DNA of 64,000 bases from a virus, in the IMG/VR virus record IMGVR_UViG_3300042397_000787; one strand, given 5' to 3'. Shown here one piece after another: positions 19,192-37,982 of this stretch. Positions within the stretch are counted from its first letter, which is position 1. Each line of letters begins with the position of its first letter. The notes under the pieces are model-generated. The model had not been told where the DNA came from. It was given only the letters and a program-made list of their open reading frames with translations, and ran no database searches. Made by a program: the position numbers and the translations under genes.

Positions 19192-19367
19192 GCGTTTTCT
19201 TCAAGCCATTCTATCTGGTGATTAGCTACCGTAATGGAAACTATGTTGCCGCCATCGTCCTCAAGGGTCAGGTCCACCCCAGTGGAGTTTTCTCTTGTCT
19301 TGGCCTCGTGGACGAAATAAATCTTACCAGCATGTTCCCAGCTGTCGTTGTCTATTCTACAGTGCAT
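19188..19367 (-). CDS. Hypothetical protein (59 aa, not in ORF track)
   Basis: MHCRIDNDSWEHAGKIYFV...; stop inside TTGACA. Confidence 0.55.
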   Translation of the reverse strand: MHCRIDNDSWEHAGKIYFVHEAKTRENSTGVDLTLEDDGGNIVSITVANHQIEWLEENA

Positions 19368-20718
19368 AGTGATGCTCCAAATACGCTCTTAGTTGTTCCA
19401 TACTGACTTTGGTATCTACCATAAAGTCTTCTTTATTTAGGTATACAAATGTAAACGCCTTTTCAAGATAAGTCTTACCATTTTCTATATCATATCTTTC
19501 TTGCTTGTTCCAAAGGACAATAAAATGCTTTCCATTATTAGGAACTACAAAACTATGATCGCCAAATTGTTCTTGCATCATCTGTTTAAGTTCGCCCGTG
19601 TATAACGGGTGGTCGTCATTTCTACCACCATAATAAAAACGGTCGCCTTCAACTAATAAAGCGTCTGCTACTGGTCTTGGTGCTGGCCAGAGGTCAGAGT
19701 GAACCATATCACCGTCGATCTTGTATAGGTCATCTACCAATTTACCTATATATCCTGGTTGGTATACGGAATCTGGTGTTATTCTATTTACCAGCAAAGG
19801 TACACCAGTATCGACAGAGCCGTAATGGGACATGAAATCTATTGGATATTCTTTGGTCATATCGTATATCTCTGGCCCAGCTGGAAACCCAGACATATTG
19901 ATTGTAATTCTATGACTAGGACGCCGATCGGCCTCAGGAAAACCGAGTTTCAGTGCGTCTAGCACAAAACTATTAGAGCATATCAGAGTGTCTACTTTTC
20001 TATCGGTCAAACATTCTTCGACAAATTCTTTTGGGCGCCATATTTTCTTTTGGTGATGAGGAACCCAAGCAACGCTTCCAGAATAATGAACGTCACACAC
20101 CATTAGAGTTGGAAGAAGATATGATAACATAGCAGAAGCATGGTGCATATTTACCGTCTGTTGCACCACGTTCCGCTTAGTATAACCAAAAGCAGATATA
20201 TTTCTTTGCGAAATCTTATACACCTCATCGTGGGTAAAGAAGTATGGCTTAGATACGCCTGTGGTACCACTAGTTGAAGCGAATATCAGAGCATCACTAG
20301 GAGAAACGGGTATATCTACATCTGTGTCGTTTGTTATCTCATCGATTTCATCTTCGTAACAAACCTGCTTGCTATATCGCTCAAACATTTCAGTCTGTAG
20401 GTCATTTTCATCCAACATTCTCTGAGAGATAGTTATATCAACAGGACCAAATATTGCCATCTTTGTAACATGAAGTGTTTCTTTGGCAATTGGCTTGGCA
20501 ATGATGAAAATTTTCAATCCTAATTCTGCGGCTGCAAATAGACAGGCAATATGATTTAAGTTTACATCAAAAATACCAAGGGCCATTACATCACCGCTGC
20601 GAAGTTCCTTGTATATCAGAAGTCTCTTCCAACGGTTGATGAGGCGAAATAGATCATCTCTATTCGCCCCATCGTAGTTTATGTCAGGATTGATTATATG
20701 CCTGTTAATCACGGGCAT
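19357..20718 (-). CDS. AMP-binding (ANL superfamily) adenylate-forming enzyme, paralog 1
   Basis: STSGTTGVSKP P-loop, HYGSVDTG, YGGR. Confidence 0.75.
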   Translation of the reverse strand: MPVINRHIINPDINYDGANRDDLFRLINRWKRLLIYKELRSGDVMALGIFDVNLNHIACLFAAAELGLKIFIIAKPIAKETLHVTKMAIFGPVDITISQRMLDENDLQTEMFERYSKQVCYEDEIDEITNDTDVDIPVSPSDALIFASTSGTTGVSKPYFFTHDEVYKISQRNISAFGYTKRNVVQQTVNMHHASAMLSYLLPTLMVCDVHYSGSVAWVPHHQKKIWRPKEFVEECLTDRKVDTLICSNSFVLDALKLGFPEADRRPSHRITINMSGFPAGPEIYDMTKEYPIDFMSHYGSVDTGVPLLVNRITPDSVYQPGYIGKLVDDLYKIDGDMVHSDLWPAPRPVADALLVEGDRFYYGGRNDDHPLYTGELKQMMQEQFGDHSFVVPNNGKHFIVLWNKQERYDIENGKTYLEKAFTFVYLNKEDFMVDTKVSMEQLRAYLEHHYAL

Positions 20719-20893
20719 AGAGCGCGGCCCTAATATCCTTGTATGCTTGGTCTAGAATGGCCTTGATACGAGCCTTCTCTGATGGCATGGCACCCTTAGC
20801 CTCAACGTAAATGTTACAATTGAGAGTGCTTTCACCAGCTTCTGTTTCCATATCGCTGGTCATGTCGTTGTAAAAGAGTTGTGTATTAATCAT
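20705..20893 (-). CDS. Hypothetical protein
   Basis: Coupled ORF. Confidence 0.5.
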   Translation of the reverse strand: MINTQLFYNDMTSDMETEAGESTLNCNIYVEAKGAMPSEKARIKAILDQAYKDIRAALYARD

Positions 20894-21110
20894 TTTTATT
20901 CATTGCCTCCATAATTATATTTACGCGGTGCATCGCTTCTAGAATGCGAGTTATTGTAATTAGTAGCACACAACCTATCCACCATCCAAAAAACATGGCC
21001 TCTCCGATATGTGTTCCGCTAACGAAAAATTTAGTGGCTGCAATAAATGCGGCCAAGACAAAGCCCTTGAAACAATTATCAATAAACCAATTAGCTAAGG
21101 TTATGTTCAC
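20886..21110 (-). CDS. Small two-TM membrane protein
   Basis: Two hydrophobic segments. Confidence 0.6.
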   Translation of the reverse strand: MNITLANWFIDNCFKGFVLAAFIAATKFFVSGTHIGEAMFFGWWIGCVLLITITRILEAMHRVNIIMEAMNKND

Positions 21111-21279
21111 TCTTTAGTCTTTCAATTTCGGTTTTGATTTTTAGTTTGCGGCGCTTAATGGTATTTACCAGCCAGTCTTGAGGCTTCGGGCGCTGCATTA
21201 GAATTTCAAGACCTTCGTCTTGTTCTCGGTGTTTTTGTTCCAAGGCTCTGATATGGTTCAATACACTTTGTTTATCCAT
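21091..21279 (-). CDS. DUF465/YdcH-like coiled-coil protein
   Basis: LEQKHREQD...IKRRKLKIKTEI. Confidence 0.7.
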   Translation of the reverse strand: MDKQSVLNHIRALEQKHREQDEGLEILMQRPKPQDWLVNTIKRRKLKIKTEIERLKSEHNLS

Positions 21280-21290
21280 AATATACTCCA

Positions 21291-21590
21291 TTACAAATGT
21301 TTACGGATCATCTCCAAGGTAGAAGCGGCGTCTTGCTGCTTTTCTACATCCCGTAAAAACTTACCTATTATATGCCGCCAGTCACCCTTATCCATGACAG
21401 TGGTTAGAATATTCTTAGACAAGACTTGAAGGAGTGAGCCGAGGGCTATAAGGTCTTCCTCGTCGTCACAATACATGACAATTTCTTTGATATAATCATC
21501 AACGTCTTCTAGTAGAGAAACGCGCTTTTCTTGACGCTCTCTTGAGGTAAGCCTGCGCTGAGGATCATATGGATGTTCAATCATATTCAT
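21291..21590 (-). CDS. Hypothetical protein
   Basis: 99 aa ORF. Confidence 0.6.
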   Translation of the reverse strand: MNMIEHPYDPQRRLTSRERQEKRVSLLEDVDDYIKEIVMYCDDEEDLIALGSLLQVLSKNILTTVMDKGDWRHIIGKFLRDVEKQQDAASTLEMIRKHL

Positions 21591-21592
21591 AT

Positions 21593-22321
21593 TTATTCAA
21601 AATATTCCTTGAACCAATTGGCCACATGAACGTGGGCTTCTTCGCTTGGATGGTCGTCCCATGGGCAGAGTAGATTCTTACCCATAGACTCAAATGTCTT
21701 GCTCTTGTCAAACAGGAAAATATTTTCATCGGTTTCCAGATAATCAATGTATTCATCCATAGTCTTACGAGAGGCAATGCGTCGAGTTTGCAGGCCGCGC
21801 TTCAATGCGGTGTCAATACATGCATCACGGAACCACATCTGCACACAGGTAATATCCATAGAGTCGCATAGATTTTTAATTGTGGCAACATGGTACAATG
21901 TCTTCAACATGTCGGAATGATACGAAGACAACTGTTCGTAGTATGTGGCCAGAGCCTTCTTTGTGGCTTTGGGTATATTATCAAAGTCAACCGATGAGCC
22001 GCGTAGTTGTAGGGCATCCACATCAAAAGGATATGGTTCATCCCTGTAGTCGGTGAATTCAAAACGAGATGGGTCCGACCACACGATAATAACACGCTCT
22101 GGTTTGTGTTGTAGAATATCTATGAAGGCACGGCGGGCAATCCGAGAGTTAGAAGAGCCTGGCGTTGCCATGTTCATTTCTTCCATATCCCAGGCATCAG
22201 CCAGTAGTTTAGAGAAACGCTTGGCTTCACACTTGGCATAGACTTCTTTCATGTTACCAGGTGCATAACGCTCAATACCGATACCATATGCAAAACTACA
22301 ACCGTTTACGTATAACTTCAT
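21593..22321 (-). CDS. SGNH-like hydrolase/acyltransferase, paralog 1
   Basis: YVNGCSFAYG, GSSN, DDHPSEEAH. Confidence 0.7.
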   Translation of the reverse strand: MKLYVNGCSFAYGIGIERYAPGNMKEVYAKCEAKRFSKLLADAWDMEEMNMATPGSSNSRIARRAFIDILQHKPERVIIVWSDPSRFEFTDYRDEPYPFDVDALQLRGSSVDFDNIPKATKKALATYYEQLSSYHSDMLKTLYHVATIKNLCDSMDITCVQMWFRDACIDTALKRGLQTRRIASRKTMDEYIDYLETDENIFLFDKSKTFESMGKNLLCPWDDHPSEEAHVHVANWFKEYFE

Positions 22322-22509
22322 GTTCTTCTCCAGAAGGGGACATATGTTTCGCCCACCCATTTTGATTTTGGACACTTAGTATATAGTAGTTTCACTTTAG
22401 CTGGCATATGACACCCACATATACCACAGGTTTTACCGTTTAAGTGGACACATTCTAAACAAATATTCCAACGTCTCTCTTGTTCTTCTTCACTTGCTAT
22501 CATAATCAA
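22318..22509 (-). CDS. Small Cys-rich protein (DUF6171-like)
   Basis: CLEC..TCGICGC..CPKSKW. Confidence 0.65.
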   Translation of the reverse strand: MIMIASEEEQERRWNICLECVHLNGKTCGICGCHMPAKVKLLYTKCPKSKWVGETYVPFWRRT

Positions 22510-22765
22510 TTGCGTTTACAAATGAAAATTTCTGTCCTTCGGTCCAGTCTTTTAGATACTCATTGTCTTCGTCAAACTGGCGAAGATACTCCACATCATC
22601 AATCTCACGAGCGGTGGTAATCACTTCATCAACATGGTGTTGAGAAAACTCCGCAAGTTCTCCCACATTCATGGTAACTTCATCCTTGGCATCGGCCGGG
22701 CTATTTGCTTCGATGACATACCGCATACGGAACATGGAGATTGTTTCTACAAGATACTTAGCCAT
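22490..22765 (-). CDS. Hypothetical protein
   Basis: 91 aa ORF. Confidence 0.6.
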   Translation of the reverse strand: MAKYLVETISMFRMRYVIEANSPADAKDEVTMNVGELAEFSQHHVDEVITTAREIDDVEYLRQFDEDNEYLKDWTEGQKFSFVNAIDYDSK

Positions 22766-23480
22766 TTAAAAATCCTTTCTTAAAGTCAACTTCTAGCATA
22801 CTTCTATAGTCTCCGTCAAGACATTTTAAAACATAATCACAAAAAATCTTGTGATTGTCTTCTGATATATGATTAGGTCTAGCATCAAAAATTCTATTTC
22901 TAGAGTATTCACCCTCTGTTGCAAATTCTTGATGGCTAATCTGTCTCATATAGCCGTCTAAGTGAAAATCATATGACAGAGTAAAATCGGAATAACGGGC
23001 CTCATCAAAGGCATTAATCAACAGTTTTTTGTTGCTTAATCCGTTAAGGGCTTCTCGTATCAAATTTACTTGCGCCCGATGTAACTCAGGATTATAGAAA
23101 TGAAACCAAGTTTCATAAAAACTTTTATGCTCATTATAATGTTGTTTCAATGATGGTGGAAACTTAACATTCTCAAATGAGAAGCCTTGCGTCGAAAACA
23201 GTTGTAATATGGCCGAAGATTCTGCATCAAAATCTGGATGTACCAAAGGAGAGCGTCCACTAGAAGTCACGACAAAAATAATAATATCGTCAGGAGAATA
23301 TGACTTATTCAGGTATTCATAATATTTTACGGTAGCATAGTTTAATGAACTGCCTCGGCGGGCATAGTTGTTAATACCTAACCCTAACGTCTTAGCAGTC
23401 TCTTTCCACCAAATATATTTACCATCTGTATCCGTATATTCGGCACAAAAACTATCACCGAACAATACTAAGTTAGCCAT
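22758..23480 (-). CDS. SGNH-like hydrolase, paralog 2
   Basis: LFGDSF, GSS, DARPNHISEDNH. Confidence 0.7.
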   Translation of the reverse strand: MANLVLFGDSFCAEYTDTDGKYIWWKETAKTLGLGINNYARRGSSLNYATVKYYEYLNKSYSPDDIIIFVVTSSGRSPLVHPDFDAESSAILQLFSTQGFSFENVKFPPSLKQHYNEHKSFYETWFHFYNPELHRAQVNLIREALNGLSNKKLLINAFDEARYSDFTLSYDFHLDGYMRQISHQEFATEGEYSRNRIFDARPNHISEDNHKIFCDYVLKCLDGDYRSMLEVDFKKGFLNG

Positions 23481-23658
23481 CGATGCGCCCAAGACGATGC
23501 AGCAAGTTTGAGATAACCGCTACATCTGGATGAGGTTCTCGTTCGCTATATCCCTCTACTCTCATAATGTCGAGTAGATACGAATGCAATGCCCGCTTGA
23601 TGACGGGAATATCGGTGGGGGCAAACGCGCCGCCCTTAGCTTCTTTTACCATTGTCAA
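23473..23658 (-). CDS. Hypothetical protein
   Basis: Coupled ORF. Confidence 0.55.
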   Translation of the reverse strand: MTMVKEAKGGAFAPTDIPVIKRALHSYLLDIMRVEGYSEREPHPDVAVISNLLHRLGRIDG

Positions 23659-24401
23659 TCTTCCTTAAAAAGGTCAGTCTTAAATTTTACGGAACTTAAC
23701 GGTGAATAATTATACTGCAAACACTCATACATGTAATCCGCTAGAATATAGTGGTTATCTTCGTGGAGATGGTTAGGTCTAGCATCCCAGCTACCAAGTT
23801 TACCTGTTCTGGTTTTTATCTTACCTCTGAAATGCTCACCGCTCTTTCCGCTTATATGCTCATTCTCACTAGCAACCATTAGATTGCCGCATGGATGACA
23901 TTCGGGTCGATTATTATCATTTGTTGGGTCAGAATCCTCGAATGCAGATAATACCAATTTCTTATTAGGCAAAGAGTTTATTGCTTTTGTAATAAAGTAA
24001 CACTGTGACTTATGAATAGCCGGATTAAAGAATTTTAGCCAGGTCTTGTAGTATTCTTCATGTTCTTTGAAGTGTTCGGTAACATATGGATTATCTAGTT
24101 TTTCCAATAGTTTATCATCACCCACGATGAATTTATATAGTGTCGACCAGGATGGATAATATGCATCGTGGACTATAGGTGCCCGGTAGCAAGATGTCAG
24201 GACAACAACTATGATATCCGTTTCTTGGTAATCATTCTCTAGATAGTCGAACAGCTTAATAGAGGTATATTCCAGATTGGTGGCAGCCAGTGAATAGTAT
24301 TTCACTGGTACATCAAATTTGGAAGACAGGAGTTTGGGCCAAGTTATTTCTTGTACCCTCTCATCTGCAAAACTATCGCCAAAAACTACTAATCTAGACA
24401 T
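23655..24401 (-). CDS. SGNH-like hydrolase, paralog 3
   Basis: VFGDSFA, DARPNHLHEDNH; colinear with paralog 2. Confidence 0.7.
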   Translation of the reverse strand: MSRLVVFGDSFADERVQEITWPKLLSSKFDVPVKYYSLAATNLEYTSIKLFDYLENDYQETDIIVVVLTSCYRAPIVHDAYYPSWSTLYKFIVGDDKLLEKLDNPYVTEHFKEHEEYYKTWLKFFNPAIHKSQCYFITKAINSLPNKKLVLSAFEDSDPTNDNNRPECHPCGNLMVASENEHISGKSGEHFRGKIKTRTGKLGSWDARPNHLHEDNHYILADYMYECLQYNYSPLSSVKFKTDLFKED

Positions 24402-24952: not shown

Positions 24953-25133
24953 GAGAATCTTCCGAAAGTCCAGTCAAATATTCATCATTACCAAAATCCA
25001 ACGGAAAAATATCAATTTCCTTTGCTGCTTGTGCGAGTTTAGTTACACCATAAACTGCTAGTGCCGCTACTCCGAACACTGCTAGATATGGAATGGCTTC
25101 GATTGCCTTTTCTTTTAGGTCATCCTTAGTCAT
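24942..25133 (-). CDS. Small membrane protein
   Basis: One TM helix. Confidence 0.55.
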   Translation of the reverse strand: MTKDDLKEKAIEAIPYLAVFGVAALAVYGVTKLAQAAKEIDIFPLDFGNDEYLTGLSEDSRED

Positions 25134-28177: not shown

Positions 28178-28260
28178 TGGTAGGCACGGCGGGACTCGAA
28201 CCCGCAAGGTTTCCCGACGAATTTTAAGTCCGTTGCGTTTACCAATTTCGCCACGCGCCC
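28178..28260 (-). tRNA. tRNA-Leu(TAA)
   Basis: Cloverleaf with long V arm, CCA. Confidence 0.93.
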
Positions 28261-29147
28261 AAATTCTGACCCCATGTGGTGTCAGTCATTTCGTAGTAGA
28301 CATAGTTATCAACTAACGTCTTATTTAGACCCAGAGAAACAAGCCAGTCTGAGTAAGTTGATTTACTATCACCCATCATTTTTCTGACTTGCCGGTGTAT
28401 ACCATGTGTAGGACTGTTTATACTCAAACAAAATTGTATTTGTTCATTTACGTATTCATCTACATTACCATCTATGCTCAAATGATCCAATACACTACAT
28501 ACAGCATACTCTGGCGAATCCAGAAGGTCATCGTCTACAAAAAAGTAATAATAATGCCATTCTGCCATTGGAATGATGCCATCATCCTGCATAAAAAGAT
28601 ATTCAAACAACGGATGCTCTATCGCAGTCTTTACATAAGACGTTGTAGCAGCAAACGGAGCCTCAAGCACCCCGGGATGTCTTCTAGGTGCAACCATACC
28701 AGTTTTAGCGGCAATAAAATTTGTCCACTTTCTTGGTAGATACATTTCACTTCGTTCTTCTGGGTAAATGTATCTGCCATTACCATGTTTAAATGGCCAC
28801 TCATCCAGATTAGTAGGACGGACAAAAATGTTTTTGCAGTCAAGCACAAGTACCGTATCATCCAGAGATTGTGCGGCTGTAGTCAACTTCAACATCTGTT
28901 GTCTGCGCCACCCAAAAGTAAACGGTTGATCAAAATGTAAATAATTCTCACGTTTAGAAAACGCTAGATTAAGTTTGTGTCGGGTATAATACGGAGCCAA
29001 AATGTTATGCCATTCTTCTGGTGTTAAGGATTCATCCTCAACTGTAATCCAATGGCGACATGGCTTCTCAATAAACTTATCAATTGAGTGGGCCTGAAGT
29101 AGAAGGTCTTGAATATCCCTCTCACAGGCAATAGTAACTATATCCAT
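28239..29147 (-). CDS. DUF6492-like (GT-A-like) protein, paralog 1
   Basis: GWRRQQMLKL, LVLDCKN; stop inside tRNA-Leu. Confidence 0.65.
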   Translation of the reverse strand: MDIVTIACERDIQDLLLQAHSIDKFIEKPCRHWITVEDESLTPEEWHNILAPYYTRHKLNLAFSKRENYLHFDQPFTFGWRRQQMLKLTTAAQSLDDTVLVLDCKNIFVRPTNLDEWPFKHGNGRYIYPEERSEMYLPRKWTNFIAAKTGMVAPRRHPGVLEAPFAATTSYVKTAIEHPLFEYLFMQDDGIIPMAEWHYYYFFVDDDLLDSPEYAVCSVLDHLSIDGNVDEYVNEQIQFCLSINSPTHGIHRQVRKMMGDSKSTYSDWLVSLGLNKTLVDNYVYYEMTDTTWGQNLGAWRNW

Positions 29148-30031
29148 TAGCAGTCCATATATTGTTTAACTAATTCATCATTCAGCCCAAGTGATAGAAG
29201 CCATTCTGTATAGAACATACCAGTTTTACTCGGAAGGTTTTCTCTCACGGTTTTATGTAAGCCATGAGTTGGGCTGTTAATATTCAGGCATCTTTCAACA
29301 TCGTTTCTGATACTCTGATCATACCGTCCCTCTATCATATCAAAGGGACTGATTGCATTACATATAATATCTTTTTCTTCTGGTAGTTCATCAGGATCAA
29401 CATAGAACATATACGTATGAAACTCCGAGTTTGGAGTAACATCTTGATTTAGAAAGAGTGCTTCCAAATCAAAGTCTTCTGCCATTTGCTGAACTATTTT
29501 CTTCTCAAAGACAAATGGTGTTTCTAACAAACGACCAAACTTATCTGGTATTTGTTTACCAGAAATCTCACTGAAATATAATAGCCATCCTTGTATGATA
29601 TCATGGTTAGTACCAGTGAAAATTGTATCTCTAGTCAGATATGCACCATTACCATGCTTTACTGGCCAAGAATATAGGTCAGTGGGTCTAACAAATAAAT
29701 TTTTAGAATCTAGAACTAATGCATGGTCGCTTATAACATGATCACTGGTGGTAAGAAGTTTTAAGTATTGTTGCCTTCTCCAGCCATGCCCAAATCTACC
29801 CCAATCCGCAAAGACAGCATCCAAGGTGGGGTCTCTACGATAAGTATTTAATCTAAGGGTATGCTTTGTATAATACGGCGACAAGATATCTTGCCATTGA
29901 TCAAGCGAAAGATGTGTATCTTCTACCGTGACGAAATGTGTTATAGGCTTCTCAATAAACTTATCAATTGAATGTGCTTGTAGAAGAAGGTCTTGAATGT
30001 CTCTTTTACAAGCAATAGTAACTAAATCCAC
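29147..30031 (-). CDS. DUF6492-like (GT-A-like) protein, paralog 2
   Basis: GWRRQQYLKL, LVLDSKN; tandem duplicate. Confidence 0.65.
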   Translation of the reverse strand: MDLVTIACKRDIQDLLLQAHSIDKFIEKPITHFVTVEDTHLSLDQWQDILSPYYTKHTLRLNTYRRDPTLDAVFADWGRFGHGWRRQQYLKLLTTSDHVISDHALVLDSKNLFVRPTDLYSWPVKHGNGAYLTRDTIFTGTNHDIIQGWLLYFSEISGKQIPDKFGRLLETPFVFEKKIVQQMAEDFDLEALFLNQDVTPNSEFHTYMFYVDPDELPEEKDIICNAISPFDMIEGRYDQSIRNDVERCLNINSPTHGLHKTVRENLPSKTGMFYTEWLLSLGLNDELVKQYMDC

Positions 30032-30044
30032 AATTATCTCCTAA

Positions 30045-30122
30045 TGGGGTGAATGACGGGACTCGAACCCGCGACATTCGGCATCACAAGCCGACACTCT
30101 AACCAACTGAGCTACATCCACC
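30045..30122 (-). tRNA. tRNA-His(GTG) with G-1:C73
   Basis: Cloverleaf, CCA. Confidence 0.95.
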
Positions 30123-30143
30123 ATACTCAGGAATACTTATAAC

Positions 30144-30232
30144 TGGCGGAACATCAGGGAGTCGAACCCTGTATACCCTTTAGAGGTATTACGCATTAGC
30201 AGTGCGTTGCATTACCGTCCTGCCCATGTTCC
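30144..30232 (-). tRNA. tRNA-Ser(GCT)
   Basis: Long V arm, G73, CCA. Confidence 0.92.
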
Positions 30233-30238
30233 TAAAAT

Positions 30239-30313
30239 TGGTAGCCCGAACGGGTTTCGATCCCGCTTCTCCGCCTTGAAAGGGCGGTGTCCTAGCCACT
30301 AGACGACCGGGCC
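30239..30313 (-). tRNA. tRNA-Glu(TTC)
   Basis: Cloverleaf; T-loop ATCGAAA. Confidence 0.9.
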
Positions 30314-30316
30314 ATT

Positions 30317-30391
30317 TGGAGCGGAAGAGCGGATTCGAACCGCCGACCATCTCGTTGGCAACGAGAAGCTCTACCACTGAGCTACTTCCGC
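30317..30391 (-). tRNA. tRNA-Gly(GCC)
   Basis: Canonical. Confidence 0.95.
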
Positions 30392-30395
30392 ATTA

Positions 30396-30473
30396 TGGAG
30401 CGCCGAGCCGGATTCGAACCGGCGGTTTTACGGATTTGCAATCCGTTGCGATGGACCACTCCGCCATCGGCGC
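30396..30473 (-). tRNA. tRNA-Cys(GCA)
   Basis: U73, CCA. Confidence 0.92.
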
Positions 30474-30474
30474 T

Positions 30475-30546
30475 TGGTACCAGCAGGTGGTAATGATCCA
30501 CCCAAACTAACCTTATGAGAGTCAGTCGAACACCTGTTCTACTGGT
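30475..30546 (-). tRNA. Aberrant tRNA(CAT), possibly elongator Met
   Basis: ACCAGTA/TGCTGGT-A-CCA; mini D arm GAAC-AGGT-GTTC; loop CTCATAA; T arm GGTGG-ATCATTA-CCACC. Confidence 0.65.
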
Positions 30547-30547
30547 G

Positions 30548-30623
30548 TGGTGCGAATAACAGGAATTGAACCTGTGACCTTTCCCTTATCAGGGGAATGC
30601 TCTACCATCTGAGCTATATTCGC
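30548..30623 (-). tRNA. tRNA-Ile(GAT)
   Basis: Canonical. Confidence 0.95.
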
Positions 30624-30629
30624 ATCTTA

Positions 30630-31073
30630 TCAATTAAATAACTTTTCTAAGTCCTTGAGAGGAATTATGCAGTTACTATATTGATTTGTTAAATCTGGTC
30701 CTTTTTTAAATATCAATCTTATTTTTGGAAATGATAGAATATCACATATAATATAATTCATAGTGGAGGAATGTTCTATAGCTTTTTCTTCATTAAAAAC
30801 TCTTCCGCCGCCAAAATTTATAGATTGCATAAATCTACATCCAGACTTTGTAAAACATTTCTGTTCATATTTCTGGCCGTCGGTCAAACTAACATGATCA
30901 TGACCTCTGGCATTTACATATTGCAAATCTGGAAACCATTTCTCAATCATTATTTCCAGAAATTTTGAGGCTATTCTTCCATCTTTAAACATTCTATTCA
31001 ATTCAGACTCTTGTAGTATATCAAATGATATATTTTCAAGTTCAAAATAATATGTTTTGTCAAATACTATCAT
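30630..31073 (-). CDS. AT-rich PD-(D/E)XK-like endonuclease inserted in tRNA array
   Basis: GHDHV...YEQK motif; start MIVFDKT after GAGG. Confidence 0.5.
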   Translation of the reverse strand: MIVFDKTYYFELENISFDILQESELNRMFKDGRIASKFLEIMIEKWFPDLQYVNARGHDHVSLTDGQKYEQKCFTKSGCRFMQSINFGGGRVFNEEKAIEHSSTMNYIICDILSFPKIRLIFKKGPDLTNQYSNCIIPLKDLEKLFN

Positions 31074-31087
31074 TATAACCTCAATAT

Positions 31088-31163
31088 TGGTGGACACTTT
31101 GGGGTTCGAACCCAAGACCTACAGGTTAAAAGCCCGTTGCTCTACCTACTGAGCTAAGTGTCC
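31088..31163 (-). tRNA. tRNA-Lys(TTT)
   Basis: Canonical. Confidence 0.95.
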
Positions 31164-31169
31164 GTGAAA

Positions 31170-31245
31170 TGGTAGACGATGTAGGATTCGAACCTACGAC
31201 CTAAGGATTAAGAGTCCCGCGCTCTACCGACTGAGCTAATCGTCC
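31170..31245 (-). tRNA. tRNA-Lys(CTT)
   Basis: Canonical. Confidence 0.93.
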
Positions 31246-31253
31246 ATTAAATT

Positions 31254-31328
31254 TGGTAGACGAGGAGGGACTCGAACCCCCAACCTAACCGTTATGAGCG
31301 GTCGGCTCTACCATTGAGCTACTCGTCT
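31254..31328 (-). tRNA. tRNA(CAT), probably Ile2
   Basis: ACCGCTCATAACGGT arm typical of Ile2, A73. Confidence 0.85.
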
Positions 31329-31524
31329 ATATGTAGACCCGAACACGATCGGAATCTACAGGAGCACCGACCACTCGACGCTCTATGTAGTAATAATCTA
31401 TGAAATGATCGCCGTCACGGGTATACACACCGTGGGCAGCCCGCGCTTCATCTTCAGATGCATACACACCCAACAGCAACGAACCTTCGTAATCCCATTC
31501 ACCTAACAATGCAAAAACTTCCAT
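31327..31524 (-). CDS. Hypothetical early protein
   Basis: Follows cassette leader; LLGVYASEDEA. Confidence 0.7.
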   Translation of the reverse strand: MEVFALLGEWDYEGSLLLGVYASEDEARAAHGVYTRDGDHFIDYYYIERRVVGAPVDSDRVRVYI

Positions 31525-31584
31525 GACGAATCACTTTCTCTCTGACTATATTCTCATAATAGCTGATTCGCCGGTAAATGTCAA
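31525..31584 (-). promoter_or_regulatory. Early promoter/leader cassette copy 15
   Basis: TTGACA-TTTACCGGCGAATCAGC-TATTAT; AGTCAGAGAGAAAGTGATTCGTC-ATG. Confidence 0.85.
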
Positions 31585-32861
31585 GTGCTAAATTTTTCTA
31601 GATATCCCAAAAGTTGATAAACATTGACCTTGGTTTCGGTAGTCCATTGTTCTTTACTGAGGTAATGAACGGTCATACCAGGCACTTCAACGCCCTCACT
31701 ATCATTCCAGATGATTAGGTTGTTTCCGTAAACAGATAGGTCTTTCTTTAGCAGACGCTTACATGCCTTTTCAACGGGATCTACCTCAACACGGCCGTTA
31801 TGATACCACTTACCATTCTTCTCGGTCAACTTATCTTCTAGAACTCTACGTCCTACCCAAGGACCTTCTACTAGAATTTCATCACCCGTAATGATCTTGT
31901 AGTAATCATCAGGCTCTACGCCTAGCCAATTTTCTTGCCATTTGGAATGCTTTGTCACATGATTCAACAAAAGGGGAATGCCCGTATCTACAGAACCGAA
32001 GTGCGATAGAAACTCTACGTTGAAGAACTCGCAATACTCCACATATTCAGCCGGGATAGTATAGCCACTGAGATTAATCAGCAGAGTTGCATCAAACTGG
32101 TCTGAGAAATATTTTACCAAATCACGGACGACAAATGCACTACCAAAGAAAACTCTATCTACCTTCTTTTCTTTGATGAACGTAAAGAAGTTCGGCATAT
32201 CATCATAGATATTATAGTAATAGTGCTTATCTGCTACCATAAGAGCAGGTAGCAAGAAGGTCATCATACAACTAACGTGATGCATGTTTCGGGTATGACA
32301 AACTACGGATTGTGGTTCGAACTTGAAAACGCCTGTGTTTCTCTTTGAGAGGTCGAAGCAATCTTTCTGCGTGAAGTATACCGGTTTAGGTCTGCTGGTT
32401 GTTCCACTTGATGAACCACAAAGAAAGATTTCATCGGGCGAACTATAATCTTCCAACATTTTTTCTGTGACGCTATCAATTTCTGTCTCGAAAATGTTCA
32501 TTTTACAGTAGCGATTTACCATTTCCATATATGGTTCGCTTTTTGCAAGATATTCATCTACGACATGGAAGTCAATAGGATTAAATACCGAGGCTTTTGT
32601 TCGGTCAATCGTTTCAACGGCCGCTGGCTTATCAAGTAATACCAGTCTCATTGCCAATTCACCCGCTGCAAAAATAAGGGCTAGATGATTTGGGCTTACC
32701 ATGACAAGAGAAATGCCAAGGGAGTCTCCTCTCATGGCACCTCTTTTGACTAAGAGAAATTTCCATCGATCAATTAAGCTACACATTTCTTCGCGGGAAA
32801 CTACATTTCCTTTTTCATCTTCATATGAAAAATTGTCAGTCAAAATGTTCTTGTTGATCAT
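31581..32861 (-). CDS. AMP-binding (ANL) enzyme, paralog 2
   Basis: SSSGTTSRPKP, HFGSVDTG, HNGR. Confidence 0.75.
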   Translation of the reverse strand: MINKNILTDNFSYEDEKGNVVSREEMCSLIDRWKFLLVKRGAMRGDSLGISLVMVSPNHLALIFAAGELAMRLVLLDKPAAVETIDRTKASVFNPIDFHVVDEYLAKSEPYMEMVNRYCKMNIFETEIDSVTEKMLEDYSSPDEIFLCGSSSGTTSRPKPVYFTQKDCFDLSKRNTGVFKFEPQSVVCHTRNMHHVSCMMTFLLPALMVADKHYYYNIYDDMPNFFTFIKEKKVDRVFFGSAFVVRDLVKYFSDQFDATLLINLSGYTIPAEYVEYCEFFNVEFLSHFGSVDTGIPLLLNHVTKHSKWQENWLGVEPDDYYKIITGDEILVEGPWVGRRVLEDKLTEKNGKWYHNGRVEVDPVEKACKRLLKKDLSVYGNNLIIWNDSEGVEVPGMTVHYLSKEQWTTETKVNVYQLLGYLEKFST

Positions 32862-32875
32862 AGGTTATCTCAAAC

Positions 32876-32963
32876 TGGAGGAAGCGGTGGGATTCGAACC
32901 CACGGTACCTTGCGGTACGACAGTTTTCAAGACTGTAGGTTTCAACCGCTCACCCACGCTTCC
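32876..32963 (-). tRNA. tRNA-Ser(TGA)
   Basis: Long V arm; U73. Confidence 0.92.
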
Positions 32964-32967
32964 AATA

Positions 32968-33204
32968 TTATACGCCCACGGCGCTACGATATGTATCTAG
33001 GATCATATCTTCTTCCTGTCTCACATGTGCTTCCAGCTTACGGAGACGCACAATCTTACGAACGGCCTTGGTATCAAACCCTTCACCCTTCAATTCAGAA
33101 TAGACTTCCTTACGGTCAATCTTCTTCACATCAATCTCGGCTTCGATGTTTTCAATACGCTCAATGAACAGGCGAAGTTGGTCTACTGCAATAATATCAC
33201 TCAT
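32968..33204 (-). CDS. gapR: GapR/DUF2312 nucleoid-associated protein
   Basis: DQLRLFIERIE..KEVYSELKGEGFDTKAVRKIVRLRK..EEDMILDTY. Confidence 0.9.
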   Translation of the reverse strand: MSDIIAVDQLRLFIERIENIEAEIDVKKIDRKEVYSELKGEGFDTKAVRKIVRLRKLEAHVRQEEDMILDTYRSAVGV

Positions 33205-33225
33205 TATATATGTCCTTAAAAAAGA

Positions 33226-33301
33226 TGGATGCCCCTCCAGGGCTCGAACCTGGACTCTTCGGAATCAAAATCCAACGTGTTGCCAATTACACCAAGGGGC
33301 A
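33226..33301 (-). tRNA. tRNA-Gln(TTG)
   Basis: U1-A72, CCA. Confidence 0.93.
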
Positions 33302-33302
33302 A

Positions 33303-33378
33303 TGGTACGGGATGACGGGCTCGAACCGCCGACATTCTGCGTGTAAAGCAGACGCTCTACCAACTGAGCTAATCCCGC
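33303..33378 (-). tRNA. tRNA-Val(TAC)
   Basis: Canonical. Confidence 0.95.
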
Positions 33379-34046
33379 GTAATTATGACCAGATCTTGTC
33401 TCCAGTCATTTGATATTATAGTCGTTTTATTGTATTTGTCAAGCATTTTTGAAAAATAATCAACGTTATAATATGTCCACAAGAAACGAACATTTTCTTG
33501 AGGAAACTCTTGTGTTATTTTAGACTTTGTTTTACCATCTACGTCACATTGATAGACGTAACAATAGTCCATATTTTCATGCTCTGGGAAAAATCTAAGA
33601 AGTCCTATTTCACCATAAACGGTTTCAGTATCTTTTCCGTATGCTGTCCAAGAAATTAACATTTTTCCGTTTTCGGCCAAGTGACTATAAAGCCACTCTA
33701 TTAGGGTCAACATCTCTTCTTTTGAAGTATGTGTGAAGACACTATGCGCTATGATTAAATCATACTTTTCTTCTATTACTGGAAGTTGTTCTTTTCCTCC
33801 AGGATTATATTCTGGATTAAATCCGTCATAATGGATGAAGTTTGCACCAGGAAACATACGTCTTCCTGTTTCAATTGCATCCTCACAGATATCAATGCCA
33901 GTATAATTTTCTTGAGGAAAAGATCCGTTAGAAGTTTCTAGAAATATACCATAGTTGCAACCAAAATCTAATACCTTTCGTTCATCGACATCTGGTATCA
34001 TATCTTTTATCACAGTATGAATGGGCAAATAATAGTGTATTAGCAT
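33369..34046 (-). CDS. Class I SAM-dependent methyltransferase
   Basis: VLDFGCNYG, YTGID, HSVFTH; stop inside tRNA-Val. Confidence 0.85.
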   Translation of the reverse strand: MLIHYYLPIHTVIKDMIPDVDERKVLDFGCNYGIFLETSNGSFPQENYTGIDICEDAIETGRRMFPGANFIHYDGFNPEYNPGGKEQLPVIEEKYDLIIAHSVFTHTSKEEMLTLIEWLYSHLAENGKMLISWTAYGKDTETVYGEIGLLRFFPEHENMDYCYVYQCDVDGKTKSKITQEFPQENVRFLWTYYNVDYFSKMLDKYNKTTIISNDWRQDLVIITRD

Positions 34047-34487
34047 TTAGTGCCTCACTACATGGTCGGCAGCATGTGTTGCCGCAAACGAATCGGGTTT
34101 GATTTTAGCATCAATCCCTGTTGTTCCCTTAACATACCCCAATGCTTCTTTAACAGCAATGTTAGATTTATGCTTGGGATCTGGATTGATATCAAGGTGG
34201 ATTTCTAGATGCCGATTGCCAATTACATCAACAATTTCAGTTGCTGCTTCGATGGCAAATCCTGCTTCGGTAATCAGACGTTGACGTAAGTTACCAAAGT
34301 CACGCATTTCTACGTTTCTAGAAAATATTTTACCGCCATGCTTAGAATCCATGTGAAGAATAATGACGGTGGAATACTTGGCGTACCACTCACCGCTACG
34401 CTTTTTGAATCTAATAGAATCAGCACCTATATAAACAGATGACGTTTCACTGGAGTTTAGAATTGCTTCTCTTGCCTCATCATACAT
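34047..34487 (-). CDS. RNase H-like YkuK family protein
   Basis: VYIGADS, IHLDIN, AATHAAD. Confidence 0.75.
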   Translation of the reverse strand: MYDEAREAILNSSETSSVYIGADSIRFKKRSGEWYAKYSTVIILHMDSKHGGKIFSRNVEMRDFGNLRQRLITEAGFAIEAATEIVDVIGNRHLEIHLDINPDPKHKSNIAVKEALGYVKGTTGIDAKIKPDSFAATHAADHVVRH

Positions 34488-34505
34488 GCGTCACCTGTTT
34501 ATAAA

Positions 34506-34579
34506 TGGCGAAGGTGCCGGGATTCGAACCCGGAACGACGGTTTTGGAGACCGTAATGATACCATTTCACTACACCAAC
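34506..34579 (-). tRNA. tRNA-Trp(CCA), two U-U mismatches in acceptor stem
   Basis: GTTGGTG/CACCTTC-G-CCA. Confidence 0.85.
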
Positions 34580-34586
34580 AAAAAAA

Positions 34587-34663
34587 TGGTCTGGAATGTA
34601 GGATTCGAACCTACGACCCCCTGCTCCCAAAGCAGGTGCGCTACCAGGCTGCGCTAATCCCAG
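34587..34663 (-). tRNA. tRNA-Pro(TGG)
   Basis: Canonical. Confidence 0.95.
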
Positions 34664-34672
34664 AAACTTTAG

Positions 34673-34861
34673 TTACTTTGAATCTGCTTGTGGAGTTGCT
34701 TCCGACGCAACAACTTCTACAGTTTCTGTTGCATTTGCTGTAGCAAGTGCAGCATCAGCCGCTGGGCCAGCAGCTTCCGATACAGATGGTGTTTCCGCGG
34801 TAGGAGCGCAAGCGGCAGTAAGAGCGGCAACTGCGAGAACCATAAAAGTCTTGATATTCAT
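34673..34861 (-). CDS. Small Ala-rich lipoprotein
   Basis: Signal peptide with LTAAC lipobox. Confidence 0.7.
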   Translation of the reverse strand: MNIKTFMVLAVAALTAACAPTAETPSVSEAAGPAADAALATANATETVEVVASEATPQADSK

Positions 34862-34918
34862 AATTAATTCCTTGGTTGTTATATGAAATTATCGCGCATC
34901 TAACATTCGTGATAATTC

Positions 34919-35000
34919 TGGAGCCCAAGATAGGATTCGAACCTACATCTTACTTCCAGTTACCTTTGGCTCCGTTCGTAGCGGAGAGGGATACTTGGGC
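34919..35000 (-). tRNA. Rearranged tRNA-Arg(ACG)-like RNA lacking a conventionally placed D arm
   Basis: GCCCAAG/CTTGGGC-T-CCA; TATCCCT; CTCCG-CTACGAA-CGGAG; 23-nt insert; GTAGG-TTCGAAT-CCTAT. Confidence 0.7.
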
Positions 35001-35005
35001 AAACT

Positions 35006-35078
35006 TGGAGCGACCGATGGGATTCGAACCCACTCCGTCAGCTTGGAAGGCTGAGTCCTCACCCAGGAGAACAGTCGC
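35006..35078 (-). tRNA. tRNA-Gly(TCC) with shortened D arm
   Basis: CTC-CTGGGT-GAG D arm; U73. Confidence 0.85.
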
Positions 35079-35084
35079 ATTTAT

Positions 35085-35393
35085 CTAAATGCTGGCTCTA
35101 ATAGCTATGACAGTTTGCACATCATAGAAATCATCTTGGTCTAGACCTTCTGATTCAAGAGTTACAACTTCTGCTTCATCGATGAATGTTATTCTGGAAT
35201 CTGCAAGCTCTCTTGCAACACAAGCCTGTGCCGCTGCCTGCGTAGAATACAAAGTGCAGAGAGGATTTCCAGGCTTTACACCTAGAAAATCAGTATCATC
35301 AATTAGACTATCGAACTTTTCAGCCAGATCGTTACCTGCTAGAGAGTTGTAATGGTTAGCATTATTAACAAAAAATTTAGCGATATATGCCAT
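35085..35393 (-). CDS. Hypothetical late protein
   Basis: 102 aa downstream of late promoter. Confidence 0.6.
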   Translation of the reverse strand: MAYIAKFFVNNANHYNSLAGNDLAEKFDSLIDDTDFLGVKPGNPLCTLYSTQAAAQACVARELADSRITFIDEAEVVTLESEGLDQDDFYDVQTVIAIRASI

Positions 35394-35418
35394 TGCTTTT
35401 TTCCTGCTCTTTTATGTA

Positions 35419-35706
35419 TTAATTGTCGGGAACATAGAAATCGCTGACCGCTAAGCCATCAGCATCTTCTAGAGGCATTACGGTGGTAGTCGGTTGACCA
35501 CCGATTACAAGAGGATCTGCCCGATGACTTTCTGCAAAAGCATAGGCATTTTCTGCCGTGTCGAATAGAAAATATGTGGTCATGCCGCCTTTTAGGCCGA
35601 TGAAGCCAGTTCTGCTTTTCCAATCATCATTTCGACTCTTTTTTGCCTCGGGTGAATGGTCAATGTGATTAACTTGAACCAAGGTACATTTTACAACATA
35701 AGACAT
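35419..35706 (-). CDS. Hypothetical late protein (distant paralog of neighbour?)
   Basis: GGAG RBS; shared GFxGxKxG..LY/F.T...A pattern. Confidence 0.6.
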   Translation of the reverse strand: MSYVVKCTLVQVNHIDHSPEAKKSRNDDWKSRTGFIGLKGGMTTYFLFDTAENAYAFAESHRADPLVIGGQPTTTVMPLEDADGLAVSDFYVPDN

Positions 35707-35738
35707 AAATTTTCTCCAACAATGGGTATCTCTATCGC

Positions 35739-35746
35739 TATTTATA
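35739..35746 (-). promoter_or_regulatory. T4-type late promoter
   Basis: TATAAATA. Confidence 0.75.
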
Positions 35747-35750
35747 ACAT

Positions 35751-35827
35751 TGGCGACTCGGACGGGACTTGAACCCGCAACTTCCAGCGTGACAGGCTGG
35801 TGCTCTAACCAATTGAACTACCGAGCC
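35751..35827 (-). tRNA. tRNA-Asp(GTC)
   Basis: Canonical. Confidence 0.95.
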
Positions 35828-35833
35828 TTATAT

Positions 35834-35918
35834 TGGTGGGCCAGTGAGGTATCGATCCTCCCCCGAAGACGGACGAGATTTACAGTCTCGCTGCTAGAGC
35901 CACTAGCTTTACCGACCC
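35834..35918 (-). tRNA. tRNA-Tyr(GTA), possible 8/4 fold
   Basis: GGGTCGGT/ACTGGCCC-A-CCA; GAGG-ATCGATA-CCTC; 5-bp D stem. Confidence 0.8.
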
Positions 35919-35923
35919 AAAAA

Positions 35924-35999
35924 TGGTGCTCCCGAACGGATTCGAACCGCTGACACGTGGTTCTTCAAACCACTGCTCTACCAACTGAGCTACAGGAGC
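35924..35999 (-). tRNA. tRNA-Phe(GAA)
   Basis: Canonical. Confidence 0.95.
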
Positions 36000-36006
36000 G
36001 TAATAG

Positions 36007-36089
36007 TGGTACGCCTAGAGGGACTCGAACCCCCACGCTTTCGCACTGGTACCTAAAACCAGCGTGTCTACCAATTCCACCATAGGCGC
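36007..36089 (-). tRNA. tRNA-Leu(TAG)
   Basis: Canonical long V arm. Confidence 0.95.
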
Positions 36090-36098
36090 AAAAAGAGC

Positions 36099-36211
36099 GA
36101 CCACCTGCAGTGTGCCTTGATCGAATTACGTCCGGGCGCTTCGATCTTCCCAGATAAAGAATACTGTTGCAACAGTATCTCTACCCCTTCGCGGGTTCAG
36201 CAGAGGTGGTC
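36099..36211 (-). ncRNA. Unassigned multibranch structured RNA A
   Basis: GACCACCT/AGGTGGTC closing stem and three internal hairpins, between two tRNAs. Confidence 0.6.
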
Positions 36212-36216
36212 TAACT

Positions 36217-36292
36217 TGGTGGAGAATAACGGGTTCGAACCGTTGACATCCAGCTTGCAAAGCTGGCGCTCTACCAACTGAGCTAATTCCCC
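36217..36292 (-). tRNA. tRNA-Ala(TGC)
   Basis: G3:U70, canonical. Confidence 0.95.
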
Positions 36293-36300
36293 AAAACTTA

Positions 36301-36534
36301 TTATTTTTTATAAGAGTTAATATATTTTTGGTATTCTTTGTTTGGATGATTTACCAATCGTTTATGGTACAGATCAATTATAGTTTTTGCGGCCGTACCA
36401 GGCAACAGATTAGGAAAAAATCCATGTATGAAACTTGCTAATGCTGCCCAAAGTAATCTCAGTCCAGCCGAATTTGCAAAAACAAAATGGCTTAAATAAG
36501 TTTCTTTGCTTTTTTCTAAGTGTTCTCTAAACAT
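36301..36534 (-). CDS. DUF6356-like protein
   Basis: FREHL...ETYLSHF..A..IHG..P. Confidence 0.65.
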   Translation of the reverse strand: MFREHLEKSKETYLSHFVFANSAGLRLLWAALASFIHGFFPNLLPGTAAKTIIDLYHKRLVNHPNKEYQKYINSYKK

Positions 36535-37982
36535 CTAAAAAATTCCCTCATTAATTCTTTATCTAACTTGACTCCAAAATAGTAATCTTTGAAATCCAGA
36601 ATTGCAAACTTATCTATACGAACTAGATTGGTTCCGTGATGAAAGAGAATTGCAGCATCTATTTCCATAACTAATTCGTTTATATCTTTATCATAAGACG
36701 AGTTGATTGCTAGATAGATTTGGTTTTCGATAATATCTATAACAACAGAAACGTTGTTATCATATTTAGCAGAAATATTTTCAAGGAATGGCAAGTCTAC
36801 TGTAGTATCATTGATACGAATGACATCGGTGCGCCCGGTATGTTTATACTCATGCCAGTGGGCTTTTACCTTCACGAACTTATCATTCGTAGCTACCGTC
36901 TTATCATAAACGGGCATGTGAACTAAGAGACCGCCTTCTTCATCGAAAGAAACGCCATAGAAAGCATCTGGTTTAAAAAACTCGGTGTTATCAAAAGTAT
37001 CGGCATTAACCGCGGTTAATCTGGACAACAGAAGTGGTCCAGCAGTTTCATTGCAACCAAAAACACTTTCTATGCTTTCAACATAACCTTCTTTCACATA
37101 TTTCGTATAATCATATGGAATGTAAGACAGAAGATCCAAACGCATATTTGGATATTTTACGCCGTGATTTTCCAACGAAGTAAAAAACTTATCGGAAAGA
37201 TCCCTATATGATAAAGTGGCATGATTGATATCTTGGTCCTTCAAAGTCAGGACTAAGTTATCAAGAATTTCCGCGCGGTGTGACATAAGATAGTGGTTCT
37301 TTACCGCATCGCTATGCAACGAAGGTAAGAAAAACACACTCAAACTACTACCGTGATTAAGGTTTCTGCTATGCAGAACGTTACCCGAAAATCTCGACGA
37401 ATTTCTCTTACACAATTCATAGAAAAATCTATGTGTATGTGTAAGTAGCTTCGGAGTATTTGTGGTACCGCTGCTGGTGCATATCATTAAAGTATCGTCT
37501 GGGTGCGGCCGAATTACAGAGATTTCATCAAATCTTTTTTGATTGTCAACTGTAATAAGACGCAAATCCTCAATGCTAAATGATTTATTGCAATAGTCTA
37601 TGAACCACGCGGATTTAGAATATGAATAACCGGCAGCATCATGAATATAGATGTTGATAGGCGACAGTAACTTAACTTTAGGATTTACCTTATCACTAGC
37701 CAGATATGCTGGCAGTTGATCCGCAATAGTAACTACCAAGGACAACTCGAAACTGGCAAAACAAAGGGCAAGATAGTCACTATCTACCACTAGTAGTCCG
37801 ATAAGAATCCTATCGCCTTTTTTGGCGCCGCATGTTTCAGTTAAAACATACTTCCAATGGTCAATCTTCTTGACCAATTCATCTTTATTAATCGAATCTG
37901 GTGTGGGGTATTCTGTTGCAAGAGGACTAATGTCTACGCTTTGATAATTGTCCGAGATAAAATCTCTCGTTAAAGTCTGCAT
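36516..37982 (-). CDS. AMP-binding (ANL) enzyme, paralog 3
   Basis: TSSGTTNTPK, VFGCNETAG, HTGRTD; start MQTLTRD after GGAGA. Confidence 0.8.
   Translation of the reverse strand: MQTLTRDFISDNYQSVDISPLATEYPTPDSINKDELVKKIDHWKYVLTETCGAKKGDRILIGLLVVDSDYLALCFASFELSLVVTIADQLPAYLASDKVNPKVKLLSPINIYIHDAAGYSYSKSAWFIDYCNKSFSIEDLRLITVDNQKRFDEISVIRPHPDDTLMICTSSGTTNTPKLLTHTHRFFYELCKRNSSRFSGNVLHSRNLNHGSSLSVFFLPSLHSDAVKNHYLMSHRAEILDNLVLTLKDQDINHATLSYRDLSDKFFTSLENHGVKYPNMRLDLLSYIPYDYTKYVKEGYVESIESVFGCNETAGPLLLSRLTAVNADTFDNTEFFKPDAFYGVSFDEEGGLLVHMPVYDKTVATNDKFVKVKAHWHEYKHTGRTDVIRINDTTVDLPFLENISAKYDNNVSVVIDIIENQIYLAINSSYDKDINELVMEIDAAILFHHGTNLVRIDKFAILDFKDYYFGVKLDKELMREFFRCLENT

Follow-up and report, generated by a model that had tools for sequence, protein, structure and literature searches.

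The 64,000-nucleotide stretch analysed here, hereafter the window, is part of IMG/VR virus record IMGVR_UViG_3300042397_000787 and encodes three intact, divergent, stand-alone adenylate-forming (ANL) enzymes, named ANL1, ANL2 and ANL3. They belong to a widespread, uncharacterised ANL subfamily that, across metagenomic representatives, IMG/VR, ESM Atlas, BFVD and GenBank phages, is seen so far in viral and unassigned metagenomic sequence only. It is the subfamily that is new; the kind of enzyme is already well known, and ANL enzymes play a central part in activating fatty acids, aryl acids and amino acids. No report was found of an ANL enzyme studied in a bacteriophage. We give a probability of about one half to the reading that these enzymes convert a carboxylic acid into an acyl-AMP, and that the acyl group then passes to the thiol of host coenzyme A (CoA) or acyl carrier protein (ACP) or, via an SGNH enzyme encoded upstream of ANL1, to another acceptor.

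The family is common in aquatic T4-like phages, where a genome retains two or three diverged copies. Knowing its function would help to explain how abundant uncultured phages, probably of SAR11-like Alphaproteobacteria, alter the metabolism of their hosts or their own components. The three enzymes are compact and look soluble, and together with the SGNH partner they could point to an auxiliary metabolic function or a modification pathway that is new. If they turn out to be acyl-CoA ligases of the ordinary kind, the gain would be a useful annotation and little more.

The ANL genes and their motifs

The three genes are as follows.

ANL1, 19357..20718, minus strand: 453-amino-acid adenylate-forming enzyme of subfamily A, in a clade of 43; PF00501 38.9 bits
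ANL2, 31581..32861, minus strand: 426-amino-acid adenylate-forming enzyme of subfamily A, in a clade of 8, inside a tRNA array; PF00501 34.4 bits
ANL3, 36516..37982, minus strand: 488-amino-acid adenylate-forming enzyme of subfamily B, in a clade of 128, inside the tRNA array; PF00501 26.7 bits

The original prediction, made by a model from the letters alone, had placed three paralogs of 426-488 amino acids at these sites, and both places and lengths hold. The listed open reading frame (ORF) of ANL3 runs from 36516 to 38051 and encodes 511 amino acids from a TTG; however, the family profile matches only from residue 24 onwards. That residue corresponds to the ATG at 37982, which is preceded by a GGAG, so ANL3 is taken to be 488 amino acids long. 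With the PF00501 (AMP-binding) cut-off at 29.9 bits, ANL1 and ANL2 score over it and ANL3 falls just under; the family profile gives ANL2 505 bits and ANL3 344 bits. ANL2 and ANL3 are 34% and 21% identical to ANL1, respectively, and 27% identical to each other over 368 residues.

The shared motifs first noticed in the three paralogs (IxxWK, an SGTT P-loop, N(M/L)xH and a C-terminal lysine) are real, being invariant in the three-way alignment at I27, W30 and K31, at S150-G151-T152-T153, at N190 and H193, and at K437. A 39-sequence alignment of the family leaves S150, G151 and T153 (the A3 P-loop), H193 (A4), G300 (A5), D352 (A7), R366 (A8) and K437 (A10) invariant. The A4 motif reads N-M/L-H/N-H. 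The core motifs A3 and A5, the A7 aspartate, the A8 arginine and the A10 lysine are present in all three window paralogs, and the catalytic motifs are kept separately in each of four catalytic clades, which argues for activity. Degenerate catalytic residues would have spoken against adenylation; at the sequence level the full catalytic set is invariant, and on that basis ANL1-3 are very probably catalytically competent. The C-terminal domain is short, at ~87 amino acids (residues 367-453), and the sequence past the A8 arginine is non-canonical in ANL1 and ANL2; these two features make the second half-reaction uncertain, and thioester formation is not assured.

Fold and relation to known enzymes

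ANL1, the one paralog modelled, yields an AlphaFold2 model with a predicted local distance difference test (pLDDT) score of 91 and a predicted template modelling (pTM) score of 0.90, and the structure prediction called for at the outset thus returned the two-domain ANL fold, a large N-terminal domain followed by a small C-terminal one. The model matches ANL crystal structures with a Foldseek E of ~1e-18 and VIA Z scores of 31-32 over 340-420 residues. At a pLDDT of 91 and a Z of ~32, the ANL identity of the modelled protein is far beyond a chance result.

Placing the family within the ANL enzymes was attempted from structure and failed: the top Foldseek and VIA ranks are tied across substrate classes, with fatty-acid, aryl-acid, oxalate, coumarate and nonribosomal peptide synthetase (NRPS) enzymes among them. 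The family profile compared with PDB sequences matched FadD13 and acyl-ACP synthetase best (E 6e-11 to 4e-10). All NCBIfam models scored at most 32 bits against cut-offs of 300-1000; TIGR01733, the NRPS adenylation model, was nominally the top NCBIfam match for ANL1 (E 7e-7), yet it gave only 28.3, 16.6 and 15.8 bits for the three proteins against a cut-off of 317.4. GH3 (PF03321) matched ANL3 alone, over residues 185-247, with 16.7 bits against a cut-off of 23.6. Neither PF14535 (AMP-binding_C_2, the C-terminal domain of short ANLs like PaaK and F390 synthetase) nor PF13193 matched ANL1-3 at E<=0.1, although a divergent C-terminal domain could escape these models, and PHROGs holds no family for any of the three.

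In amino-acid-activating domains (NRPS, DltA), A4 carries an aspartate that binds the alpha-amino group. In the phage family the position is the invariant H193, which aligns with the A4 histidine of FadD13 and of CmaA6. A histidine here in place of an aspartate suggests a non-amino carboxylic acid, and a substrate other than an alpha-amino acid is the likelier one. The proposal of acyl or aminoacyl activation thus stands in its first half, since these are stand-alone and apparently active adenylate-forming enzymes as far as their residues tell; the aminoacyl half fares poorly, given the A4 histidine and an NRPS score of 28 bits against 317.

Several known enzymes invite comparison. FadD13 of M. 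tuberculosis (3r44/3t5b) and an acyl-ACP synthetase (8hsy/8i3i), the top profile and Foldseek matches, have the same two-domain fold and have in common with the phage proteins the A3 P-loop, A4 His, A5, A7 Asp, A8 Arg and A10 Lys. However, the phage ANLs are only 12-16% identical to them and 50-100 amino acids shorter, have a reduced C-terminal domain, and reach the cut-off of no curated FadD or AasS model. The aryl-acid adenylating enzymes CahJ (5wm6), FscC (6e8o), EntE and DhbE are likewise stand-alone and tie for the top structural Z of ~32, but each serves a dedicated aryl-carrier protein, which it loads as part of an NRPS pathway, whereas no such carrier was found in the phage (condensation domains were not searched for). 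The top single-sequence PDB matches for ANL3 and ANL1 were CmaA6 (8ztz, an ATP-dependent diazotase) and the 'AMP-binding proteins' 9bq0/8tf7; these have the A4 motif N-H-x-(A/S)-(A/S)-(M/L)-S in common with the phage ANLs, but the match is weak (E 0.02), covers the P-loop-to-A4 stretch alone, and comes with nothing that points to nitrite or diazo chemistry. The UniProt entries named 'AMP-dependent synthetase/ligase [uncultured Caudovirales phage]' (e.g., A0A6J5L571) are by structure the same viral family (Foldseek E 1e-28, 20% identity); their names are automatic, and no experimental or comparative study of them was found.

Distribution and paralogy of the family

A word-indexed search returned 49 homologues, every one of them metagenomic. 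The exhaustive profile search of 1.84 billion representatives yielded 201 clusters at E<=1e-30 and 1005 at E<=1e-10, and IMG/VR contributed 72 family loci. None of the family clusters looked up for names gave an informative one; the nearest ESM Atlas clusters and BFVD carry only automatic names, 'Viruses/Uroviricota' or 'uncultured Caudovirales phage'. With ANL1, ANL2 and a marine homologue as queries, tblastn found nothing in 50,697 GenBank phage records, among which NrdA, run as a control, matched 4782. No paper on a phage ANL family was found in the literature, so the view that the enzymes are undescribed in phages has held up. A survey of pelagimyophages, in which similar phages that have curli operons are described, makes no mention of ANL enzymes (PMC7029224).

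In a FastTree phylogeny of 249 sequences, ANL1 falls in its clade of 43 with support 0.97 and ANL2 in its clade of 8 with support 0.99, both within subfamily A (101 sequences, support 0.94); ANL3 belongs to subfamily B (128 sequences, support 1.0). Orthologues of ANL1 are 93-45% identical to it, an ANL2 orthologue with 56% identity occupies the same tRNA slot in relative L028/G001, and the ANL3 orthologues P0097, P0098 and P0092 are 41-48% identical. The three are old paralogs, each with its own orthologues. The 102 kb record of relative G001 also has three ANL copies: one occupies the tRNA slot of ANL2, and the other two form a tandem pair where synteny places ANL1. In a complete 149 kb marine genome, one full ANL is accompanied by one short copy. 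The retention of several diverged copies across relatives marks a conserved trait and fits different substrates, and the three paralogs probably take different acids.

An SGNH enzyme as recurrent partner

The analysis of gene neighbourhoods, which had been proposed as a check, brought out one recurring partner that the first reading had missed, an SGNH esterase or acyltransferase. In the window it lies upstream of ANL1.

SGNH gene, 21593..22375, minus strand: SGNH/GDSL-type esterase or acyltransferase (cluster c24), with a Ser-Gly-Asn-His tetrad and the predicted fold
Four small ORFs, 20705..21590, minus strand: 99, 66, 74 and 62 amino acids, bridging the SGNH gene and ANL1

The true start of the SGNH gene is probably the ATG at 22321 (MKLYVNGCS...). 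In an alignment of 20 c24 sequences the tetrad S27, G73, N76 and H242 (blocks I, II, III and V) is invariant. The AlphaFold2 model (pLDDT 90) finds TesA and GDSL esterases as its top Foldseek matches (E 1e-6, probability 1.0); TesA of E. coli, one of these top folds, is an acyl-CoA thioesterase and lysophospholipase. Pfam gives no match for the window protein itself, but its homologue P0204 matches PF13472 and PF00657. The small ORFs abut or overlap (by 14, 8 and 20 nt), which indicates that the SGNH gene, the small ORFs and ANL1 form one tight operon. Upstream of the tandem ANLs in G001, orthologues of three of the four occur in unchanged order, and one of the small ORFs encodes a DUF465 protein. 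Among the 34 distinct ANLs with adequate flanks, 12 have the SGNH gene within 3 kb; the pairing is recurrent, not obligatory.

A second, weaker SGNH/GDSL-like ORF, unrelated to c24, lies at window ~9571-9891 (G000:C1:9470-9790), where PF13472 matches with E 1e-6, under its cut-off.

Absence of a carrier protein

The claim that the enzymes have no carrier protein or NRPS partner is upheld, none having been found in the record, in relatives or as fusions (condensation and MBOAT domains were not searched for). The PF00550 carrier is absent from the 103.6 kb record that surrounds the window (~59% complete) and from five related records, including the complete 149 kb genome; a partner may lie in the missing part of the record, although the complete relative has no carrier either. 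None of nine small neighbouring ORFs looked carrier-like, either in Pfam at E<=1 or by eye. The search for longer, fused forms of the ANLs found none, and the 100-amino-acid tails of P0041, P0053 and P0219 contain neither a domain nor a GxDS motif.

Setting of the genes in phage genomes

The window comes from an uncultured freshwater T4-like phage, whose gp23 major capsid gene was matched with E 3e-137; no integrase was found in the 103.6 kb record. Almost all genes lie on the minus strand. The accessory region between nrdAB (45403-49130) and DNA ligase (13956-15284) contains 23 tRNA genes. The window NrdA is nearest to those of an Alcaligenes phage and a faecal phage fragment (61-62% identity), with Pelagibacter phages next at ~54%, a pattern that does not point clearly to one host. 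The hosts are probably Gram-negative Alphaproteobacteria.

tRNA array, 28178..38424, minus strand: 23 tRNA genes (ARAGORN), with ANL2 and ANL3 embedded
Promoter, 33415..33442, minus strand: sigma-70 consensus (TTGACA, 16 nt spacer, TATAAT), 12/12 match, upstream of tRNA-Val, tRNA-Gln, tRNA-Ser and ANL2

ANL2 and ANL3 do sit inside the tRNA array, as had been noted, and the perfect-consensus promoter at 33442-33415 is probably shared by ANL2 with tRNA-Val, tRNA-Gln and tRNA-Ser, which would then be co-transcribed with it. A functional link between ANLs and tRNAs was considered and rejected. An ANL lies in or beside a tRNA array at only two of 20 related loci, both in the closest relatives with the same array; the other 18 have no tRNAs near the ANL. 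The position among the tRNA genes thus looks incidental, not functional, and RNA, one of the targets originally suggested, loses its support, the ANLs elsewhere being found in other contexts.

Other features of such arrays were recorded. At the edge of the array, window 28239-30031 holds two tandem paralogous genes (302 and 294 amino acids) with weak DUF6492 matches. Between ANL2 and ANL3, window 33369-34487 encodes a class I S-adenosylmethionine (SAM) methyltransferase (225 amino acids) and a PF04308 RNase H-like protein (146 amino acids). The array of relative L004 includes a tRNA with a CUA anticodon (L004:1403-1477), called as tRNA-Pyl and a potential amber suppressor, and in relative L040 a permuted tmRNA lies 1.4 kb from the second ANL (L040:14564-14891).

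In marine relatives the usual gene order is nrdA, nrdB, a SegE-like GIY-YIG gene, an ANL of ~405 amino acids, c24 (~272 amino acids) and a short ANL of ~305 amino acids, with PhoH, NT5C and a carbamoyltransferase further on. The SegE-like gene is directly upstream of an ANL in 24 distinct loci (e.g., L018:9610-10014). Members of subfamily B are found elsewhere, between metallophosphoesterase and Rad50/SMC-like genes (by analogy with T4, putative gp47 and gp46) or next to genes for neck proteins and terminase. Homing-endonuclease-like neighbours and variable positions fit cargo of hyperplastic regions. The short marine paralogs (~305-326 amino acids; L018:12011-12928, L047:9992-10930 and L032:1466-2446) consist of the N-domain only, have lost the P-loop and A5, and usually flank the SGNH gene; none is present in the window. 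The short forms may be non-catalytic pseudo-enzyme subunits. The metagenomic protein P0050 (875 amino acids) has an N-domain-only copy that still keeps the P-loop and A5, fused to a full-length ANL.

Possible function

From the fold, the motifs, the distribution, the SGNH linkage and the carrier searches, we infer a substrate class, a thioester step, an acceptor and a biological purpose as follows. Each ANL would bind ATP and a non-alpha-amino carboxylic acid and form an acyl-AMP; the acyl group would be passed to an acceptor not encoded by the phage, for which host CoA or host holo-ACP is the simplest candidate; and the TesA-like SGNH enzyme would either hydrolyse the activated group or hand it on to an acceptor with a hydroxyl or an amine. 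The ANL genes are early-region auxiliary genes in the hyperplastic parts of T4-like genomes.

Several observations weigh against this scheme. No curated ANL subfamily model comes near its cut-off, and enzymes that activate fatty acids, aryl acids and amino acids tie as structural matches; the assignment of a carboxylic acid plus CoA or ACP is therefore carried mainly by the A4 histidine and the weak best matches. The ~87-residue C-terminal domain and the non-canonical A8 region of ANL1 and ANL2 count in the same direction, as does the absence from the record of lipid-metabolism genes (fatty-acid desaturase and FabF were searched). Finally, the SGNH gene is missing beside 22 of the 34 ANLs and from the syntenic slot of the three-copy relative G001.

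The foremost alternative dispenses with CoA as well as with a carrier. The acyl-AMP would react directly with an amine or a hydroxyl, in the manner of ANL amide-bond synthetases or GH3 enzymes, and the SGNH enzyme would be a transferase or an editor; possible targets are a polyamine, a sugar on modified phage DNA and a host envelope glycan. The compact C-terminal domain, the A8 region of ANL1 and ANL2 and the failure to find a carrier agree with direct ligation, and potential tailoring enzymes are close by (the SGNH enzyme, the SAM methyltransferase, the two DUF6492-like proteins, a Zeta-like kinase and an S-adenosylmethionine (AdoMet) decarboxylase), to which marine relatives add a PhyH dioxygenase and the carbamoyltransferase. 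GH3 matched weakly at the P-loop region of ANL3 and P0130, but these matches are under the cut-off and cover the P-loop alone, and most family members have neither an acceptor-binding domain nor a conserved transferase nearby. We regard direct ligation as possible but doubtful.

A sub-case of the preferred reading, acyl transfer to host CoA or ACP, specifies fatty acids: AasS/FadD-like scavenging, coupled to a TesA-like lysophospholipase or thioesterase, would remodel host membrane lipids. FadD13 and acyl-ACP synthetase are the best profile and Foldseek matches, E. coli TesA is among the folds that the SGNH protein matches, and lipid genes are reported in freshwater pelagimyophages (PMC7029224). 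These ANL matches are, however, weak and tied with aryl-acid enzymes, the fatty-acid ligase models are all under their cut-offs, and neither the desaturase nor FabF was found in the record, so that we consider this specific version rather unlikely.

A more far-reaching reading, which we put forward as speculation and judge improbable, would combine the ANL paralogs and the SGNH enzyme (with, in marine phages, the dead N-domain-only subunit) into a carrier-independent pathway that acylates a phage-specific target. Different acyl groups would be placed onto sugar-decorated or hypermodified phage DNA, or onto a host envelope glycan, and would serve in evading defence or blocking superinfection. 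Such a pathway, if real, would amount to phage modification chemistry of a new kind. If the acceptor were indeed phage DNA or a surface polymer, the importance of the family would rise sharply.

Activation of amino acids, by enzymes like NRPS adenylation domains or DltA that aminoacylate RNA or tRNA, virion proteins or surface polymers, is very unlikely. TIGR01733 is nominally the best NCBIfam match for ANL1, but its 28 bits fall far short of a cut-off of 317; two of the ANL genes are among tRNAs, but that adjacency is not conserved. An ANL paired with an SGNH-like protein does recall DltA/DltD, in which an ANL enzyme is genetically coupled to an SGNH-like protein that handles an activated acyl group. 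In the phage, however, A4 is His and not Asp, no DltC or other carrier was found (the searches did not cover DltB-type MBOAT or condensation domains), the SGNH partner is more like TesA than DltD, and the hosts are probably Gram-negative Alphaproteobacteria.

A reading of the genes as selfish or decaying cargo, devoid of any enzymatic role and propagated by adjacent homing endonucleases, scarcely deserves credence: SegE-like GIY-YIG genes directly upstream of ANLs, a NUMOD3 ORF near ANL3, variable genomic positions and degenerate N-domain-only copies would suit it, but the catalytic residues are invariant in hundreds of divergent full-length sequences with no stops, and three orthologue lineages have been retained.

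Other genes near the ANLs

Just downstream of ANL1, window 17375-18667 encodes a Zeta-toxin/AAA_33-type P-loop kinase (225 amino acids) that adjoins an NT5C-type 5'-nucleotidase (194 amino acids). Window 18664-19137 encodes a 157-amino-acid protein with an HExxH motif (HEMVHVKQH), without a Pfam match and with 51% identity to its counterpart in relative G001. At some marine loci a PhyH-type 2-oxoglutarate-Fe(II) dioxygenase (188 amino acids; L055:7887-8453) lies between two ANL genes and is a possible tailoring partner. The SegE-like protein is named 'NAD synthetase' by PHROG 447, which conflicts with its Pfam SegE_GIY-YIG match (E 4e-34). A SpeD/SpeH-like AdoMet decarboxylase (135 amino acids, window 39128-39535) adjoins the homing-endonuclease-type ORF with the NUMOD3 motif (window 38641-39147); a SAM decarboxylase is found beside nrdA in Pelagibacter podophages too.

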